Positions 1 to 56,382 of a stretch of DNA of 64,000 nucleotides are shown one piece after another. The notes beneath the pieces were generated by a model that made no database searches, was not told where the DNA came from, and was given only the letters and a program-made list of their open reading frames with translations. The translations under genes and the position numbers were made by a program. Origin of the DNA: Myxococcota bacterium (GTDB taxonomy: Bacteria > Myxococcota_A > Bradymonadia > UBA7976 > UBA1532); contig CAUJDF010000041.1 in assembly GCA_963169045.1 (NCBI GenBank), positions 2,872 through 66,871 on the forward strand, in the 5' to 3' direction. The first letter of the stretch is position 1; every line of letters starts with the position of its first letter.

Positions 1-44
1 AAGACGACAAACTGCACCAGTATACCGAGCCACGGCGCAACTCC

Positions 45-26761: not shown

Positions 26762-26834
26762 CAGGCCCGGAGGGACTCGAACCCCCGACCGCCGGATTTG
26801 GAGTCCAGTGCTCTACCGACTGAGCTACGGGCCT
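26762..26834 (-). tRNA. tRNA-Trp (anticodon CCA)
   Basis: Cloverleaf by hand: AGGCCCG-TA-GCTC...CTCCAAA (CCA)...GGGGG-TTCGAGT-CCCTC-CGGGCCT-G. Confidence 0.88.
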
Positions 26835-26854
26835 ACGAAAGGGCGGCGACTCTC

Positions 26855-26893
26855 CAAAAAGTCCGAAACCCAGGCGGCTTCGGGCCGCCTGGG
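26855..26893 (-). terminator. intrinsic terminator downstream of tuf
   Basis: Perfect 10-bp GC stem cccaggcggc / gccgcctggg with 5-nt loop, followed on the transcribed strand by UUUCGGACUUUUU. Confidence 0.7.
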
Positions 26894-26931
26894 TTCTCGG
26901 TCGACGCCCCGAAGGGGCGCCCGCGCAACGC

Positions 26932-28116
<1,185 letters not shown>

Positions 28117-28202
28117 CTGCAGGAATCTCCCTGAGGAAGCGCTTGCGCCCTCGCTCGCGTCGCGAGCCGGGTCGAACGGTCATTAGCCTACGCGCGATAG
28201 CA

Positions 28203-28275
28203 AGCCGACGACCGGACTTGAACCGGTGACCCCGTCCTTACCAAGGACGTGCTCTACCTGCTGAGCTACGCCGGC
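28203..28275 (-). tRNA. tRNA-Thr (anticodon GGT)
   Basis: GCCGGCG-TA-GCTC...anticodon loop TTGGTAA...TTCAAGT T-loop. Confidence 0.85.
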
Positions 28276-28323
28276 ATGGGCCGGGCCCACCGAGGCAGAC
28301 CCGACCATGCTCAATTCAAGGGC

Positions 28324-28396
28324 AGCGGGAGACGGGGTTCGAACCCGCGACATTCAGCTTGGAAGGCTGACGCTCTGCCAGCTGAGCTACTCCCGC
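28324..28396 (-). tRNA. tRNA-Gly (anticodon TCC)
   Basis: GCGGGAG-TA-GCTC...loop CTTCCAA...GCGGG-TTCGAAC-CCCGT. Confidence 0.85.
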
Positions 28397-28435
28397 GCAG
28401 GGCCCGAGTAAGCAGGCCCGAACGCGATCAATCCA

Positions 28436-28518
<83 letters not shown>

Positions 28519-28565
28519 AAAGGACCCCATACCGTCTGAAAAGAACCAGCGGCGTCGGGGTGTCG

Positions 28566-28637
28566 TGCTGGCGATGGGAGTTGAACCCGCAACCTGCTGA
28601 TTACAAATCAGCTGCTCTACCATTGAGCTACGCCAGC
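28566..28637 (-). tRNA. tRNA-Thr (anticodon TGT)
   Basis: GCTGGCG-TA-GCTCAATGGTAGAGC; loop TTTGTAA. T-stem has one mismatch in my reading. Confidence 0.72.
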
Positions 28638-45623: not shown

Positions 45624-48029
45624 TCAGCGACGGCGGCGACGCGCCAGGCCACCGACGAACAGGACCGCGAAGGGCCAGACGCCGGGCGCCGACGAGGCGT
45701 CGCAGGCGCAGCCCGCCGAGTCGCCCCCGGCGGGGTCGACGAACTGCGATCCGCCGTCGCCGCGATCGCCACCGCCCACGCCGCCGTCGCCCTCGAGGCG
45801 GTCCGGGTCGAGGACGGGCTGCTCGGGCGGCTCCGTCCAGGCGGCGACGCACTGCGCCGTGCCCGCGTGCACCGCACAGGCCTGCCCGCCCGGGCAGCGC
45901 ACGGCGTGGCACGGATCGCCGACGCACTCGCCGCCGACGCAGCGCTGGCCCTCGGCGCACTCGATGTTGCCGCAGCGGTCCGGCTGGCAGTGGCCGTCGA
46001 CGCACTGGCCGTTCCCCGCGCACTCGAAGCCGCCGCATGGATCCGGCTGGCAGGCGCCGTCCTGGCACGACTCGAACAGCGGGCACGAGATGGTGGCGCA
46101 CGAGGAGACGCACTCGCCGCCGCGACAGAACTGCCCGGCGCCACACGGCACGCCGACACACGGATCGTTCACGCACGCGCCGCCCACACAGGCCTGGCCC
46201 GCCGGGCATCCGGTCGTCGTGCAGTCGCCGGCGAGACACTGCCCGCCGACGCAGGTCTCGCCCGCCTGACAGACCACGTCCGCGCAGGGATTGCTGCACT
46301 GCCCGGTCATCTCCTCGCAGAGGAGGCCGTCCGGGCAGCTCACGCCGTAACAGAAGCTCACGCACAGCTCGAGCTCGGGGTGGCAGTAGGTGCCGCCCTC
46401 GACGCACTCGTTGTTCTGGCAGCGCCCGACGCACTCCCCGTTCACGCAGACGCCGTTGGGGCAGAGGTCGCCGTCGTCCACGAGCCCGTTGCAGTCGTTG
46501 TCGGCGCCGTCGCAGACCTCCACCGACTCGCCGAGGCAGAAGCCGCAGCCGTTGAGCGTGCCCTCGTCGACCCGGCCGTCGCAGTCGTCGTCGGCGGCGT
46601 TGCACACCTCCTCGGACGCGCCGCCGTCGGGCACGCACTGGAAGAAGCCGTTGATGCACTCCTCGTGGCCCGTGCGGCACGCGCCCGGCCGCCCGGTGGC
46701 GCAGCGACGCGGCCGCACCGGATCGCCGGACTCGTCGAAGCAGGGCCGGTTGCACAGATCGCCGCGCCCGTCGCCGTCGGTGTCGGACTGGTCGGCGTTC
46801 GGCACCTCCGGGCAGTTGTCGCAGGCGTCGCCGAGCCCGTCACCGTCGGTGTCGCGCTGGTCGGGGTTCGGCGCTTGCGGGCAATTGTCGTCGTTGCCGC
46901 ACGCCTCGTCGCCGTCGAGGTCGACGCACGCGCCGCCGAGACTGCGCTCGAGGACCAGGATCGCGAAGGCGGTGTCGGAGCCCGGCGTCCAGTTGGACTC
47001 CGGGTGGTTCCAGCTGCCGTCGGGGAGCTGCAACTGCAGGAGTTGAAAGGCGAAATCGTAGTACCAGTTCCGCGGCTCCTCGGGGAAACCGTCGCTCGCC
47101 GGATCGCGTTGGCCGCCGATGGCGGTGCTGTTCAGGCCGCCGTTCGCCTCCGCGCTGACCTCGAAGCCCTTCGCCGCCGCCCAGAGGTAGTAGTAGTAGC
47201 TCTGTCGGAACTGATTGATGTGGTCGTCGTAGCGGTAGTTGTCGCGCAGCCACGTCAGCGTCTGTTGAACGTCCGGCGCGTCGACGGGCATGTCGGCCAG
47301 GCGGAACGTCCACAGGCCCGACGCCGTCATCGAACTGCTGCTGGGGTACTGCCCCTGCCCGCCCCCGCGATAGATGTGGCCGCCGTCGGGGTTGCGCGTG
47401 TTGCGCACGAACGGCACCGCTGCGCCGAGCGAGTCGCCGGCGCCGGGCACCACCTGCTCGGCGGCGGACAGACCGGCCATCGAGAACTGGGTGGTCGACA
47501 GATCGCCGTCGCTCTCGGGCTGCTCGTAGTTCCAGCCGCCGGTGTTGGCGCCGAAGTTGCCCTGCGTGCGGCGCAACCCCGCGACACCATTGGCGATCGC
47601 CTGCTGCACCCCCACGCCCGCGCCGACGTCGTCGGGGCCGCCGCTCGAGGCATACAGCGACAGGGCCATCAGACCGGAGCCGGTGATGTAGGACTGCGGC
47701 CGGCCGCCCTGCATGCCCGGGTCGTTGGCGATGATCCAGCGCACCGCGTTGCGGATGCGCTCCTGGTCCTGCGCGCTCATCCCCGCGTAACCGACGACGG
47801 GCGCGTTCCAGTCGGCGCTCGTGCGCTTCTCGAGAAAGCAGAGGACGACGAGGGCCGTCGCCGGCGGCGTGGGACCGAAGCCGCCGTCCCCCTGCTGCTG
47901 CGCACGGAAGAAGTCGAGGCCGCGGTCGATGGCCGCGTTCACCCGCTCGCCGAACGGGGTGGTGAAGGCGGCGGCGGGGCCGGCCAGGGCGAGCGCGAGC
48001 GCGATGAGCGCGACGCGGGCTGCACGCAT
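45624..48029 (-). CDS. secreted MYXO-CTERM-anchored surface protein: signal peptide + prenyltransferase/terpenoid-cyclase-like repeat domain + thrombospondin type-3 Ca-binding repeats + myxobacterial Cys-rich repeats
   Basis: Start [21 protein letters not shown] (GGGAGGG RBS); QxxDGGF/NPDGGH/LPDGSW repeats; [18 protein letters not shown]3 repeats; >10 CxxGxxCxxGxC repeats; C-terminus [29 protein letters not shown]. Confidence 0.7.
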
Positions 48030-48135
48030 GGTTCCCTCCCTGCGGGTGCGCACCGCACGAGGGTAACAATCCCCATGCCTGGAGGGCGAGCTACATCTGT
48101 CGCGGTCGCCGGCGGCAGCCTCCGGGACCTGGGGG

Positions 48136-49023
48136 TCACACCTGCGACGCGAGGGCCACGGTGTCGCGCGCCGGCGGACGCTCGTGGGTGCGGACGAGCA
48201 GCTCGGCCACCTCGCCGCGGCCCTCGCCGTTGCGGTTGATGCTGCGGCGCGCGTAGACCACGTCGTGTGGGAATGCCGCGTACAGATCGCAGGTGGCGTC
48301 GACGTAAGAGTTGGACAGCACCCCATAGGCGCCGCGCGCCCGGAGGTCGATGAACGCGTCGCGCAGACGCCCCTGCTCGGCGGCGCCGAACGGGAACGGG
48401 TCGTAGGCGGTGAAGTTCGCGGTGCGGCTCACCGGCCAGTAGGGCGGATCGAGGTACACGACGGCGCGGTCGTCTACGCGCGGGTCGGCGAGGATCGCCT
48501 CGAAGTCACCCTCGAGGATGTCGACGTCGCGCAGCGACCGCGAGCAGGCGAGGATGTTCTCGGCGTTCACGAGGGTCGGGTTCGCGTGGCGGCCGAACGG
48601 CACGTTGAACTTGCCCGACTGGTTCATGCGGTACAGGCCATTGAAGCCCGTCCGGTTCAGCCAGAGCGTGCGCGCCGCGCGGCGGACGGGCGGGAGCGTC
48701 GCCGGATCGAGGTCGCGCACCGCGTAGTAGACGCGCTCGTCGTACGCCCACCCCTCGATCTCATCGATCAACGCCTCCGGGTGGTGCTTGACCGCGCGCC
48801 ACGCCTCGACGAGCTCCGGGTTGCGGTCGCCGAGGATCGCCCGCTTGAAGCGGCGCAACCGCGCGAGCTCGAAGAAGACCGCACCGCCCCCCACGAACGG
48901 CTCGACGTACGTCTCGATGCGCTCGGGGAGGCGCGGCAGGATTCGATCGAGCAGCCCTCGCTTGCCCCCCGCCCACTTCAGGAAGGGATGCGGCACCGGC
49001 TGCTTCGGCCCCCGTTTCGCCAT
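48136..49023 (-). CDS. Dam-family N6-adenine DNA methyltransferase (D12 class)
   Basis: 295 aa, start MAKRGPKQP; motifs [21 protein letters not shown]. Confidence 0.8.
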
Positions 49024-49034
49024 GGCGCGGCAGA

Positions 49035-49868
49035 CTAGGAGAGGGCGTCCCCTGACGCAAGCACGGCGGCGACCTGCTCGACGACGGCCTCGACGGGCAC
49101 GCCGCTGGTCTCGACGACGAGGTCGGCCTGGCGGTAGAGCGGCTCGCGCGCCTCGAGCAGCGCGCGCAGCTCGGCCATCGCGTGCGGGTGGTCGCGCATC
49201 GGCCGCCGGTCGCCCTGCCGGATGACGCGGTCCCAGTGGTCCTCGGGGGCGGCGCGCAGCCAGACGGTGAGGGCGCCCGAGCGCAGGCGCGCGTAGTTGT
49301 CGACGTGCGTGACGATCGAGCCGCCGGTGGCGACGACGCAGGCGTCGGGCGCCTGTAGCAGGCGCTCGAGCGCCTCGGCCTCGAGGCGGCGGTAGTAGTC
49401 CTCGCCGTGCAACGCGAAGAGCTCCGAGAGGCCGAGATCCGCGGCCTGCTCGACGCGGCGATCGAGCTCGACGAAGTCGCGGTGCAGACGAGTGGCGAGG
49501 CGGCGGCCGACGGTGGACTTCCCCGCCCCGCGCACGCCCAGCAGCGCGACGATGCGACCGCGGCCGCCGGCGCCATACCGGGCGCGCAGCCAGGACGCGA
49601 CCTCCGCCAGCTCCGCCGCGGAGCGCGAGGACAAGAGCGCGTCGACCTCGCCGCGCGCGCCCTCGGACACGAGCGCCGGCAGCGAGAGGTCGAGCGCCGT
49701 GCCGAGCGCCTGCAGCTTTTCGAGCGAGAGGTTGGCCTCGCCCTTCTCCGCCAGGATCACGTAGCGCTCGCTGAGGCCGGACTTCGCTGCCAGCGCTCGC
49801 AAGCTCAGGCCCAACGCCTGGCGCCGCGCGCGCAGCCGCTCCCCGACCTGACGCGTCAAACGGTTCAT
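49035..49868 (-). CDS. HTH-XRE (Cro/C1-type) transcription regulator fused to shikimate kinase
   Basis: HTH LGLSLRALAAKSGLSERYVILAEKGEANLSLEKL; SK Walker A LLGVRGAGKSTVGRRLA, DLDRRVE, VATGGS. Confidence 0.7.
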   Translation of the reverse strand: MNRLTRQVGERLRARRQALGLSLRALAAKSGLSERYVILAEKGEANLSLEKLQALGTALDLSLPALVSEGARGEVDALLSSRSAAELAEVASWLRARYGAGGRGRIVALLGVRGAGKSTVGRRLATRLHRDFVELDRRVEQAADLGLSELFALHGEDYYRRLEAEALERLLQAPDACVVATGGSIVTHVDNYARLRSGALTVWLRAAPEDHWDRVIRQGDRRPMRDHPHAMAELRALLEAREPLYRQADLVVETSGVPVEAVVEQVAAVLASGDALS

Positions 49869-49971
49869 GCAACATATTGCACCACATCGGTGCAATAAAT
49901 TGCAATCAGCCGTTGTGCGGATGCGCCACCCCGCCTAAGATGGCAGGCGATCAACTCCGCGGAGCCGGCCC

Positions 49972-51608
<1,637 letters not shown>

Positions 51609-51609
<1 letters not shown>

Positions 51610-53042
51610 TGGCCAACATCGACTATTCGGAGAAGATCCCGAACAACGTGGATCTCGCGAGCGACCGCAAGCTGCAGCGCGCGCTGGAGGAGTGGCAGCC
51701 CAACTTCCTGCAGTGGTGGCAGGAGATGGGACCGGACGGCTTCCAGCAGGACCAGATCTATCTTCGCACCGCCGTGAGCGTCGATCGCGACGGGTGGGCC
51801 CACTTCGGCCACGTGAAGATGCCCGACTATCGGTGGGGCATCTTCCTGACGCCGGGGGACGAGAACCGGCTGATCCACTTCGGCGACCATCTGGGGACGA
51901 AGGCCTGGGACCAGGTGCCCGGCGAGTACCGCAACATGCTGCGGCGCATCATCGTCACCCAGGGCGACACCGAGCCCGCCAGCGTCGAGCAGCAGCGCCG
52001 CCTCGGCCACACCGCGCCGTCGCTCTACGACATGCGCAACCTCTTCCAGGTCAACGTGGAGGAGGGCCGCCACCTCTGGGCGATGGTGTACCTGCTGCAC
52101 AAGTACTTCGGCCGCGACGGTCGCGAAGAGGCCGAGGCGCTGCTCGAGCGCCGCTCCGGCGATCCCGACAGCCCGCGCATCCTCGGCGCGTTCAACGAGC
52201 CGTGCACCGACTGGCTGTCCTTCTTCTGCTTCACCACGTTCACCGACCGCGACGGCAAGTACCAGCTGCGCGCGCTCTCGGAGAGCGGCTTCGACCCGCT
52301 CGCGCGCACGACCGAGTTCATGCTGACCGAGGAGGCGCACCACATGTTCGTCGGCAAGACGGGCGTCGAGCGCATCCTCCAGCGGACGGCCCGCCTCGCG
52401 AAGGGCGGCGACGTGCTGAACCAGGGCGGGATCCCGTTCGAGATGGTCCAGCGCGCGGTGAACTTCTGGTACTCGGTGTCGCTCGACCTCTTCGGCGGCG
52501 AGGACTCGTCCAACGCGGCCACCTTCTTCGGCGCCGGCCTGAAGGGTCGCGACCGCGAGATGGAGCAGGCGGAGCACAGCGGGTTGAACGAGACGTTCAA
52601 GCTCGAAAAGTTCGCGCCGGACGGCACCATGACCGTCGAGGAGTTGCCGCTGCGCCGCGCGATGAACGAGGTGCTGCGGGAGGCCTACGTGAAGGACTGC
52701 GACAAGGTCGTCAAGTCCTGGAACCGGGCGCTCGAGGCCGAAGGCACCGACTTCCGCCTGACGCTGCCGCACAAGCGGTTCCACCGCGCGCAGGGCGTGT
52801 ACGCCGGCCTGCACTTCGACCCGCAGGGGCGCTTCGTGACCCCCGACGAGTGGGAGAAGCGCAAGGACGACTGGATCGTGAACGACCGGGACCGCGACGT
52901 GCTCGCGAACCTCATGACCGAGGCGGTGGTGAAGCCCGGTGAGTTCGCCGGGTGGATCGCGCCGCCGCCCCGCGGCATCGACGGCCAGCCGCTCGACTTC
53001 GAGTACGTGAAGTTCCACTCCGGCTCGCCCTACGCCGAGTAG
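51609..53042 (+). CDS. boxB: benzoyl-CoA 2,3-epoxidase (oxygenase component, diiron)
   Basis: Start MANIDYSEKIPNNVDLASDRKLQRALEEWQPNFLQWW overlapping boxC stop (TGATG); EExxH diiron ligands (TEEAHHM). Confidence 0.65.
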
Positions 53043-53097
53043 TCGGCCGTCGCGCATCGCCTCACGTCCCATCGTCGTTCCGCCGATGTGACGGGGC

Positions 53098-54000
53098 ATG
53101 TCGCGCACCCGCACGTTCCACGTCCTCAGCGCCGATCCGCAGTGGGCGCGGCCCACGCCGCCGCCCGTCCAGCCGACCCCCGGTCCGACGCCGGCGCCGG
53201 CGATCGACACCGGTCCCCTCGCCCGCGATGAAGCGCTGCTGGCGCACAAGGAGCGGGAGCTCGCGGCGCGCGAGGCCGCGATCGCCCATCAGGAGGTGAA
53301 CGCGCTGGCGGACCAGGCCGGCGTCGAGGGGCGCGTGCGGGCGCTCGAGAAGCGCCTGCGGGCGCTGGTGGCGTCGGGCGTGCCGGGCGCCGCGCCGCTG
53401 GCGGAGACGATGCCACGCCCCGCGCCGCCGCCGAGCATCGCCGAGCGCAAGCGCGCCCTGAACATGCGCCGCGCCGCGCTGGACGCCCGCGAAACCGCCG
53501 CGCGTCGCCGCGAGGAGGCCTGCGGGCTCTTGCGGGCCCACCTCGAGGCCGCCCGCGGCGCGCTCGCCGACGCGGAGCGCCGCCTGGACCTGCTCGAGCG
53601 GTGGCCCGAGGTCGAGCCCGAGCCGACCCCCGCCGGTGACGTCGACCCGCCCCACGACGAGCGCCGCGTCGGTCGCCGCGCGCGCCTCGACTGCCAGGTC
53701 GGCTTCGAGACGCAGGACAACTTCTTCAGCGGCTTCGCGCGGGATCTGTCCGACGGCGGCCTCTTCGTGGCCACCTTCGACACGCTGCCGGTCGGATCGG
53801 CCCTGGACGTGGGGTTCGACCTGCCCGACGGGACGCACGTCGAGGCGCGCGCGCGGGTACGTTGGGTGCGTGAGCTCGTGGAGGCCACGTCGGACGCGTG
53901 GCCGGGCATGGGACTGTGCTTCGAGGACCTGCCGGCCGACGCCGCCACCGCGATCGAGCGCTTCATGTCCGCCCGCGAGCCGATCTTCTTCGCTGATTGA
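53098..54000 (+). CDS. PilZ-domain (c-di-GMP-binding) protein with N-terminal coiled-coil/Pro-rich region
   Basis: C-terminal RRARLDCQVGF...DLSDGGLFVAT matches PilZ RxxxR...D/NxSxGG. Confidence 0.6.
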   Translation: MSRTRTFHVLSADPQWARPTPPPVQPTPGPTPAPAIDTGPLARDEALLAHKERELAAREAAIAHQEVNALADQAGVEGRVRALEKRLRALVASGVPGAAPLAETMPRPAPPPSIAERKRALNMRRAALDARETAARRREEACGLLRAHLEAARGALADAERRLDLLERWPEVEPEPTPAGDVDPPHDERRVGRRARLDCQVGFETQDNFFSGFARDLSDGGLFVATFDTLPVGSALDVGFDLPDGTHVEARARVRWVRELVEATSDAWPGMGLCFEDLPADAATAIERFMSAREPIFFAD

Positions 54001-54040
54001 GGCGTTGACCGGCGCCCGCGCGATCGACACCCTGCGCGCG

Positions 54041-55615
54041 ATGGAGACCTTCGGCATCCCCGGCGCCCCGGACGACGAGCTCCGGCGGTCGCCCGCGGCG
54101 GCGCTCGTCGGGCGGCTGGCGGCGGCCTCGAGCCTGCTGCTCAGCCACTTCGAGCACCGCGTGCACCTGCCGCTGCCGCTGTCGTGGACGGCGTCGGGCC
54201 AGGAGGCGCCCCCCGCGGCCTGGCAGCGGGGGCAGCTGCCCGAGGGCAAGTACGAGCACTTCCGCCACGACAACGCGGTCGGCAGCTTTCACCCGGGCCA
54301 CCGCGCCAAGTGGACGGCGCACGAGCTCTGCCATCGCCTCGTCGGCTTCGCGTGGCACGCCGGGGCGACGACGCTCTTCCACGCGCTGTCGGCGCGCCTC
54401 GCCGAGGTGCTGCCGGTCGCGCTCTGGTACTTCTTCGACGAGATCGGCCTGCGCCGCTGCGACGAACACGCCGGCCAGGGCCCGCTCTTCGGCGCCTTCT
54501 GCGCGGCCTGCGAGGACGCGGCGCGCCGGGGGCCGGTCGCCGCCACCGACGAGGACCGCCGGCGCGCCGAGGGCCGGGCCTTCGTGGAGCGCGAGCTCCT
54601 GGCAGTGCGACGTTCCCGGGAGCTTGGGCGGCCCGTCCCCCACCGCTGGGCGACGCTCGACCTCGCCAGCGACGGCACGGCCTACGCCGCCGCGCACGCG
54701 CCGCGCCTGAGCACGCCCGAGCTCGCCGAGTTCTGCGAGCGCTTCCATGCGCCGTGGGGGCTGTGGCATCGCAGCCTCGACGCGATGGAGGCGCGGGTCG
54801 TCGCGCTCACGGACGCGCTGTGCGGCGGCGCCCCGCCGACGCCCCTGACGGGCACGCGCGACCGCTGGATCGCGCAGGACCTCGGCTGGCGCCTCGTCCA
54901 GGTCCGCGCCGAGACCGAGGGCGAGGCCACCGTGGAGCTCGGACGCCTGATCGAGCGCCTCGCCACCGAGCCGGGGCCCGAGACCTTCGCCGCCGTCGAG
55001 GCCGGCTACCGCGCGCTGTTCGAGGACTGGATCCTGCCCGAGCCGGATGACGTGTTCGCGGTGGGCTACGGCGCGTGGCGTTCGGTTCGTCAGATGCGCG
55101 AGGGCATCGAGTCGGTGTGCCCGGCGGCGCTGAAGCTGCTGGGCGACGGCGAGCTCATCAACGAATTCGTGAAGCAGGACGGGTACTTGCGGCAGCCGCT
55201 CGGCCGGCGATTCGCCGCGTTCCTGGCGGTGCGCGCGCCGGGGCCGGCGGCGCAGGTGGCGGCGCTCGAGGCCGTGCTGGCGCAGCCGCCGGCGCCGGAT
55301 CCGGCGGCGGGGCTGGGCGCCGCCGGGGCGCGCGACGGTCGGCGGCGGTGGGCGGCGGGGCTCGAGCTGCTGCGGGCCGACGTCGACGTGCTGGCGCTCC
55401 TCGAGGCGCTCAACGCCGGGCGGACGCCGCGCCTGCGCCGCCGGCCCGTGAACCTGGTCGTCGGGCGGGCCCACGACGGCGAGGTGGTGCTGGCGGAGGT
55501 GAGCGCCGCGGCGGCGGACGCGCTGGCGGCCGGCGCGGCGCCGGCCCTGCCGTCGGAAGAGCGGGCGTCGCTCGAGAGCCTGGGGCTGGTGCTGCCCGTG
55601 GCCTGGGAGGCGTGA
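54041..55615 (+). CDS. hypothetical protein with HExxH zinc-metallopeptidase-like motif (start uncertain)
   Basis: ~520 aa; WTAHELCHRLVGFAWH; Cys/His cluster CDEHAGQGPLFGAFCAACED; no signal peptide; the N-terminal part of ORF 53636..55615 overlaps the PilZ gene and is rejected. Confidence 0.4.
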   Translation: METFGIPGAPDDELRRSPAAALVGRLAAASSLLLSHFEHRVHLPLPLSWTASGQEAPPAAWQRGQLPEGKYEHFRHDNAVGSFHPGHRAKWTAHELCHRLVGFAWHAGATTLFHALSARLAEVLPVALWYFFDEIGLRRCDEHAGQGPLFGAFCAACEDAARRGPVAATDEDRRRAEGRAFVERELLAVRRSRELGRPVPHRWATLDLASDGTAYAAAHAPRLSTPELAEFCERFHAPWGLWHRSLDAMEARVVALTDALCGGAPPTPLTGTRDRWIAQDLGWRLVQVRAETEGEATVELGRLIERLATEPGPETFAAVEAGYRALFEDWILPEPDDVFAVGYGAWRSVRQMREGIESVCPAALKLLGDGELINEFVKQDGYLRQPLGRRFAAFLAVRAPGPAAQVAALEAVLAQPPAPDPAAGLGAAGARDGRRRWAAGLELLRADVDVLALLEALNAGRTPRLRRRPVNLVVGRAHDGEVVLAEVSAAAADALAAGAAPALPSEERASLESLGLVLPVAWEA

Positions 55616-55622
55616 GCCGGGT

Positions 55623-56207
55623 CTACCGGCGCCAGCGGCGCAGGGCGGCCTCGATGCGATCGGCGGCGCGGTCCAGCAGCAGCTGACGGCCGCGATGGGC
55701 CTCGTCGTTGGCGAGCGCCATGACGTCCTCGAGCAGCAGATCGAGGTCCTCGGGCTCGCCGGACAGGACGATGCCGCGGCGGTGGCGACGCCCGCCGCTC
55801 ACGATGCGCTCCGACGACGGATCGAGCAGCGGGTTGCCTTCGAGCAGGCGGTAGGCCTCCTCGGTGATCACCACCTCGATCTCGTCCTCGTCGGGGCGGC
55901 CCGGCCGCGTCACGTCCCAGGGCGTCCCGCGCCAGTTGCGGATGATGCCGCGGTCCTGGCAGGTGGGGCAGCCCCACTGGATCTCGGCGGGCAGCTCCTG
56001 ACGGCGCACCAGCAGGAAGCCGGTGCACGTCCGGTTGGCGGGGCGCCGGCGGCAGCGCACCGCCGACTCGATGGTGAGGCCCGGATACGTCGCCGTCGCC
56101 GCCGCCGTGATGCGGCCGAGATGGCGCGTCGCCGCCGCCGGCTTCGAGTCGCCCGTCGAGTCGCGGGTGTACTCCGCGCTCAAGTCGGTCTCCCGGGTGC
56201 GACCCAT
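55623..56207 (-). CDS. hypothetical small protein with Cys4 zinc-ribbon-like cluster
   Basis: 194 aa with normal composition (RCRRRPANRTC...WGCPTCQ), preferred over the R/P/A-rich alternative-frame ORF 55090..56292. Confidence 0.35.
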   Translation of the reverse strand: MGRTRETDLSAEYTRDSTGDSKPAAATRHLGRITAAATATYPGLTIESAVRCRRRPANRTCTGFLLVRRQELPAEIQWGCPTCQDRGIIRNWRGTPWDVTRPGRPDEDEIEVVITEEAYRLLEGNPLLDPSSERIVSGGRRHRRGIVLSGEPEDLDLLLEDVMALANDEAHRGRQLLLDRAADRIEAALRRWRR

Positions 56208-56382
56208 GCTCTCCTATCCTCCCCCGCCGCCGGACTTCGGCCGGTCGACGCTGATGACCCGCGAACGCCGCACGCTCACCGTAAACCTTCACTCGGGCTG
56301 AAGGCGCAATTCGCGCCCAGTCTGCCAGCGGCGCAAGTTCTCAACAACAATCGCCGCGGGGCCGCTCCGCAGGCGCTCCCCA

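Follow-up and report, generated by a model that had tools for sequence, protein, structure and literature searches.

The side-by-side position of a gene for a helix-turn-helix (HTH)/shikimate kinase (SK) fusion protein and a gene for an adenine methyltransferase, found in a 64-kb stretch of Myxococcota DNA (the whole of which is called the window here), is probably explained by conserved synteny between two separate genes of known kinds: boxR, whose product would regulate the neighboring box genes, and a solitary dam, apparently read from a promoter of its own. The value of this result is mainly corrective, in that the fusion protein is a textbook BoxR/BzdR sensor-regulator and not part of a new restriction-modification (R-M)-like or epigenetic module. 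Well beyond the Betaproteobacteria, where it was described, BoxR with recognizable TGCA(N6)TGCA or GCACTATAGTGC operators also seems to be the usual regulator of boxCB. Moreover, one clade of uncultured Myxococcota has a lineage-conserved solitary Dam. Its expression seems to rely on a compact leaderless promoter sharing bases with the stop codon of the preceding gene, a concrete and testable case for studies of orphan methylases and of leaderless transcripts in high-GC bacteria.

The surroundings of the pair are GC-rich (about 70-75% GC, with GC3 above 0.9). Both genes are found on the minus strand where a sequence-only reading of this DNA had placed them, and the gap between them measures 11 nt and not the 12 nt given there. 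The gene that was named as the next one, coding for a MYXO-CTERM protein, is also in place, and the divergent box genes reported next door are boxC and boxB according to their curated profiles. The genes are as follows:

49035-49868, minus strand: boxR, with its ATG at 49868 and its stop codon TAG at 49037-49035; 277 aa
48136-49023, minus strand: dam, with its ATG at 49023; 295 aa
45624-48029, next downstream of dam: gene for the MYXO-CTERM protein, making three minus-strand genes in all
49972-51609, plus strand: boxC, 2,3-epoxybenzoyl-CoA dihydrolase (TIGR03222, 826 bits, cut-off 712)
51594-53042, plus strand: boxB, benzoyl-CoA 2,3-epoxidase subunit B (TIGR03225, 725 bits, cut-off 499)

boxC and boxB are divergent from boxR, with a spacer of 103 nt between boxC and boxR. 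Besides boxC/boxB and the MYXO-CTERM protein gene, the neighbors of the pair in the window are genes for an acyltransferase, for gpsA and for a PilZ protein.

In the boxR product, an XRE-type HTH (Pfam HTH_3, residues 12-64, E = 6e-10) is joined through a linker to a C-terminal SK-like domain (Pfam SKI, residues 113-269), which carries the Walker A motif GAGKST and can be aligned to AroK (1kag). An alignment (A1) was built with five orthologues, and GVRGAGKST is invariant across the six BoxR orthologues that were aligned. Membership in the BoxR/BzdR family is decided by the curated NCBIfam profile NF006015 ("anaerobic benzoate catabolism transcriptional regulator"), which the protein passes with 273 bits against a cut-off of 204, in a match spanning profile positions 26-303 of 314. 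The C-terminal part had been read as a complete shikimate kinase; its architecture is indeed full length, but identity as a kinase is not upheld, with scores under the cut-off of every shikimate-kinase equivalog model (best 137.6 bits against 186). BoxR and BzdR are repressors of the bzd and box genes with an XRE N-terminus and an SK-like C-terminus, and they bind TGCA repeats (PMC6449761). The C-terminal domain of BzdR was found to bind benzoyl-CoA, with SK activity undetectable (PMC3602430). As the subfamily has been in the literature since 2005 (PMC6449761; PMC3602430), a fusion that had been thought odd belongs to a known type, and its gene lies beside box genes, divergent from boxC and boxB. 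Judged by its sequence, the product is an ordinary member of the BoxR/BzdR family at its canonical place, with no novelty.

The closest parallel is provided by Azoarcus (Aromatoleum) sp. CIB, in which BzdR and BoxR are benzoyl-CoA-responsive repressors of the bzd and box genes. The window protein has in common with them the XRE HTH, the linker and the SK-like domain with Walker A, and in both organisms boxR is located beside boxCB with TGCA(N6)TGCA in the target promoter region. The two systems differ in protein length (298 aa for BzdR, 277 aa for the window BoxR), in host (a betaproteobacterium versus a member of the Myxococcota) and in the context of the box genes, with boxA, boxD and the ligase gene not adjacent to boxCB in the window. 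Unlike in the Azoarcus system, the 3' end of the window boxR overlaps the inferred promoter of an unrelated gene, dam.

Operators of BzdR consist of TGCA repeats in the form TGCA(N6)TGCA (PMC6678401). A pattern scan of the 64-kb window for this form returned exactly two sites (shuffle mean 0.53), both within the boxC-boxR spacer, where a promoter-like element for boxC is also found:

49891-49904, no strand assigned: predicted operator A for BoxR, TGCAATAAATTGCA, a TGCA(N6)TGCA site
49868-49881, no strand assigned: predicted operator B for BoxR, TGCAACATATTGCA, which includes the A of the boxR ATG
49913-49941, plus strand: inferred boxC promoter, with -35 TTGTGC at 49913-49918, a 17-nt spacer and -10 TAAGAT at 49936-49941

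Predicted operator A matches OR2 and OR3 of BzdR in form (PMC6678401), in a system with three operator regions as against the two operators predicted here. To place these sites in a wider context, a genome collection was scanned with the BoxR alignment, giving 80 loci from metagenome-assembled genomes of Myxococcota and Acidobacteriota. Nearly all of them have the layout boxB<-boxC<->boxR, most without dam. The density of TGCA in the spacers of BoxR loci is 11.5 per kb, compared with 2.8 per kb in the background, and the spacer palindrome occurs in two copies, as TGCA-N6-TGCA in Myxococcota and as GCACTATAGTGC in Acidobacteriota. A site equivalent to operator B is found directly upstream of boxR in several related loci (L004, L005, L008, L011-L014, L253). 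The inferred boxC promoter is 8 nt from operator A, and a TTGNNN-(16-18)-TANNNT element about 58-90 nt upstream of boxC is present in 14 of the 17 related loci checked. This conserved promoter-like element abuts the operator. Following the Azoarcus paradigm, the XRE HTH of BoxR would bind the two predicted operators between boxR and boxC, repressing the divergent boxCB promoter and probably the promoter of boxR as well, and benzoyl-CoA bound to the SK-like domain would release the repressor.

An XRE-type HTH gene placed just ahead of a methyltransferase gene, with both on one strand, is also the layout of R-M systems of the C.AhdI and C.PvuII type, and the HTH of BoxR weakly resembles C.AhdI (E = 2e-6). 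The pair had been likened to this controller (C-protein) layout on such grounds, and could be what is left of a Type II R-M system with its endonuclease lost or located elsewhere. We consider such an origin highly improbable. The HTH protein is not a stand-alone HTH of about 70-100 aa, as C-proteins are, but a 277-aa catabolic regulator with a fused sensor domain that passes the BoxR/BzdR model. The only repeats upstream of boxR are of the BzdR type, TGCA(N6)TGCA (the C-box consensus itself differs between systems), and as predicted operators they lie in the divergent box promoter, facing the box genes. In at least 70 loci boxR stands beside boxCB with no methylase, and the methylase, for its part, has an inferred promoter of its own and survives loss of the HTH gene in relatives. 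The statement that no restriction endonuclease is present also stands: the genes scanned up to about 10 kb to each side of the pair include none that resembles a restriction endonuclease, and no endonuclease gene was seen beside the dam orthologues in the approximately 20 related loci examined. Within the 64 kb of genome seen, dam is a solitary Dam-type methyltransferase gene with no adjacent restriction gene.

The recognition of this gene as an orphan Dam-like methyltransferase of class D12 was correct. Its product scores 171 bits against PF02086 (cut-off 22) and 245.5 bits against TIGR00571, "Dam family" (cut-off 114.85), and the DPPY motif (as YLDPPYWP) and the AdoMet-binding FxGxG motif (as EPFVGGGAV) are invariant in seven aligned sequences. 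The closest solved structures are those of DpnM (2dpm, 194 bits) and Escherichia coli Dam (2g1p/4rtj, 145 bits), with which FLKWAGGK, NGLxR, NVPFG and DPPY are conserved; residues aligned with the DNA-contact positions of E. coli Dam are conserved too, including a K and the P in NVPFG. Because DpnM and Dam are both GATC enzymes, this similarity together with the conserved contact residues makes GATC the best guess at specificity, and the dam product most likely methylates this site. It has in common with both enzymes the D12 class, the TIGR00571 fold family and the FxGxG and DPPY motifs, but it lacks a counterpart of the DpnII endonuclease that partners DpnM, and it scores 166 bits against the equivalog model for E. 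coli-type Dam (NF008152), under the cut-off of 441. In E. coli, dam belongs to the aroK-aroB-damX-dam operon, whereas the window dam is outside any such operon. An evolutionary tie to that operon, in which an SK gene also lies upstream of dam, was considered and rejected as coincidence: the SK-like domain is common to many BoxR loci without dam, so the present arrangement would be unrelated and dam would have joined it later. A better comparison is with solitary methyltransferases such as Dam in Gammaproteobacteria and CcrM in Alphaproteobacteria. Like them, the window Dam is lineage-conserved, chromosomally fixed and without a partner endonuclease, and its gene has host-like codons, with a GC3 of 0.93 equal to that of the neighboring genes and native codon usage. 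The difference lies in the clade, here one of little-known uncultured Myxococcota.

Synteny of the fusion gene and dam in relatives, a point on which their reading as a module could be checked, does hold. The order boxB<-boxC<->boxR->dam is found in L004, L005, L008-L015, L017, L018, L023, L091 and L253, and about 15 non-redundant loci, with Dam identities of 52-67%, retain boxR and dam as neighbors, at distances from overlap to about 90 nt. Taken by itself, dam is present at the same position in approximately 17 non-redundant loci, the fixed locus of a solitary methyltransferase. The next-best Dam in a collection of 5.8 billion proteins is 67% identical to that of the window. boxR is followed by dam only in loci whose BoxR shares at least 57% identity with that of the window, and the BoxR loci at 54% identity or less are all without dam, including those of other Myxococcota. 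Metagenome Dams among the matches listed are all at 53% identity or less, and only the closest of them, L091 (53%), has boxR upstream. A neighbor-joining tree groups the boxR-linked Dams in a single clade. The gene has been a stable chromosomal gene of one uncultured Myxococcota clade, and an ancient acquisition of dam at the base of that clade may have taken place and would be compatible with this explanation.

Two other members of the Dam clade are located in different surroundings. One, P0006 (L007, 59% identity), belongs to a stretch of phage-like character that also encodes a terminase, DpdA and a C5 methylase, and is nested inside the dam clade in the tree; the other, L252, has an unrelated genomic context. 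The nested phage-like member could be taken to suggest that dam is a mobile or prophage gene, recently acquired and landed beside boxR by chance. This is very unlikely for the window gene, given a GC3 identical to that of its neighbors, the same chromosomal position across genomes as divergent as 52-67% in Dam identity, and the lack of integrase or phage genes near dam in the window. A scan of IMG/VR with the Dam alignment did not speak for a recent arrival from phages either, the nearest Dams there being just 28-38% identical.

The conserved order extends beyond the pair, running through boxB-boxC, boxR, dam, a beta-lactamase-like gene, the MYXO-CTERM gene, an acyltransferase gene and gpsA, with miaE and lon further out in the longest loci. 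Because this whole neighborhood is equally syntenic, the adjacency of boxR and dam alone says little about function, and it would reflect conserved regional synteny in one clade of uncultured Myxococcota. Several relatives depart from the order. In L251 and L254 the layout is boxC<->dam, without boxR and without TGCA operators; L028 has the same backbone with boxR kept and dam missing; and in L019 a gene for a serA-like dehydrogenase is located between boxR and dam. Pairing of the two genes is therefore not obligatory, and in relatives boxR and dam have been lost or separated independently.

Aligning the sequences upstream of dam start codons revealed a promoter-like element, represented in the window by one feature:

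49032-49060, minus strand: inferred dam promoter, with -35 TTGCGT at 49060-49055, a 17-nt spacer and -10 TAGTCT at 49037-49032

This element overlaps the end of boxR, whose stop codon is the TAG of the -10 hexamer, and 8 nt separate TAGTCT from the dam start codon at 49023. Ahead of dam there is no Shine-Dalgarno sequence, and with the promoter 8 nt from the ATG the dam mRNA would be leaderless; a leaderless sigma-70-type promoter would in turn account for the constant gap of about 11 nt. The pattern TTGNNN-N17-TANNNT-N6..8-[AG]TG has a single match over the two strands of the 64-kb window taken together (shuffle mean 0.5). Among the dam loci listed, TTGNNN-17-TANNNT-6..8-ATG/GTG is present in 13 of 17 (the window counted), including loci without boxR. 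A subgroup read by eye (L008, L013, L014, L015, L253) has TTGNNN-17-TAGAAG or TAGAAC before dam, L019 has a variant with an 18-nt spacer, and the bases between -35 and -10 are not conserved. All forms counted, nearly every dam orthologue has such an element ahead of it. Together, these patterns suggest that dam has its own sigma-70-type promoter and a leaderless mRNA. A generic scan of positions 47900-50100 for sigma-70 promoters and terminators returned nothing; it required 4 or more matching bases out of 6 in each hexamer and so misses TTGNNN/TANNNT, and its negative result was given no weight regarding promoters.

A true boxR-dam operon would place Dam under the control of BoxR and benzoyl-CoA, as a metabolite-responsive epigenetic module, with read-through raising Dam or occlusion of its promoter lowering it. 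No terminator was found in the 11-nt gap between the genes, their spacing is tight in several genomes (overlap to 11 nt), their adjacency is kept across the approximately 15 genomes described above, and the overlap of operator B with the boxR start suggests autoregulation; all of these would fit an operon. We nevertheless regard it as unlikely. The adjacency is matched by the synteny of an entire neighborhood of unrelated genes and is broken in the relatives that lack boxR, lack dam or have a gene inserted between them, and translation of dam from a bicistronic mRNA would have to proceed without a Shine-Dalgarno sequence. GATC sites do occur in the box promoter regions of relatives, but their positions are not conserved. 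The frequency of GATC in the window (observed/expected 0.97, neither avoided nor enriched) and the GATC positions do not point towards Dam-dependent regulation or away from it.

The overlap between the 3' end of boxR and the dam promoter might itself be functional, such that derepression by benzoyl-CoA leads to read-through that alters Dam dosage and GATC methylation, although the chance of this seems slim. The same read-through may either supply extra dam message as a bicistronic transcript or block the leaderless promoter of dam, and a regulatory link by read-through or by promoter occlusion is, overall, of low probability. If it were true, Dam dosage and GATC methylation would respond to aromatic substrates met by the cell, a link from metabolite to epigenome, and no other reading would make the locus interesting. 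According to the explanation favored here, most dam transcription would start at the gene's own sigma-70-like promoter, which overlaps the end of boxR, and would yield a leaderless mRNA. The conservation of the promoter-like element, even within the coding sequence of another gene, argues for this and against an operon: the element is found inside the boxR coding sequence in the window, L004 and L005, in a non-coding spacer in L009, L010 and L012, and in the boxC-dam spacer of the boxR-less loci L251 and L254.

At the window locus (positions 49972-54000), as in the relatives L004, L005, L008 and L254, the box genes are limited to boxC and boxB, and none of the neighbouring genes examined in the window and these four loci was recognised as boxA, boxD or a gene for benzoate-CoA ligase. 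In the window, boxB is followed by a further gene, and a gene of the same kind also stands after boxB on the contig of P0002:

window 53098-54000, PilZ-domain gene

In the Acidobacteriota/Vicinamibacterales BoxR loci (L020-L090), the boxC-boxR spacers carry two copies of GCACTATAGTGC, a near-perfect 12-bp palindrome, with GTCAAG often placed just before the first copy. This palindrome is a predicted variant of the TGCA-type operator and does not match any of the operator forms in the papers compared.

On the other side of boxR, one relative, L019, has an additional gene inserted between boxR and dam, its identity assigned by eye from the translation alone:

L019:3090-4346, D-2-hydroxyacid/phosphoglycerate-dehydrogenase-like gene, sequence start MRIFIADKL...

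The window Dam also has a relative, P0006 (59% identity), on L007, an 87-kb groundwater metagenome contig, where its gene belongs to the following block:

L007:89-10826, phage-like block holding the P0006 dam, a terminase large subunit, a DpdA-like gene and a C5 DNA methylase

Because P0006 lies in this phage-like block and is nested within the chromosomal boxR-linked Dam clade in the NJ tree, the data suggest that this dam has been exchanged between these bacteria and their phages.

On L122, a metagenomic locus, the gene for an unrelated Dam (45% identity) is preceded, at a distance of about 3 kb, by a shikimate-kinase-like gene:

L122:519-995, shikimate-kinase-like gene
L122:4001-4828, dam

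This resembles E. coli K-12, in which the annotated gene order is aroK-aroB-damX-dam-rpe-gph-trpS (L255, 3513000-3520500). The parallel between these two arrangements and the shikimate-kinase-like domain encoded upstream of dam in the window is coincidental.

Across the whole 64-kb window, CTAG is strongly rarer than expected (10 sites, observed/expected 0.24); for all 15 other palindromic tetramers tested, this ratio lies between 0.8 and 2.3. Some of the rare CTAGs fall within TAG-containing -10-like boxes in the putative dam and boxC promoters of relatives.

Also in the window, two ORFs with strong GC3 bias gave no Pfam match at E <= 0.001:

53636-55615, (+), ORF, 659 aa as listed
55623-56213, (-), ORF, 196 aa as listed

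Finally, a tRNA cluster adjoins ORFs at 14.8-28.2 kb that look like translation/transcription housekeeping genes:

26762-28637, (-), five clustered tRNA genes (Rfam RF00005)
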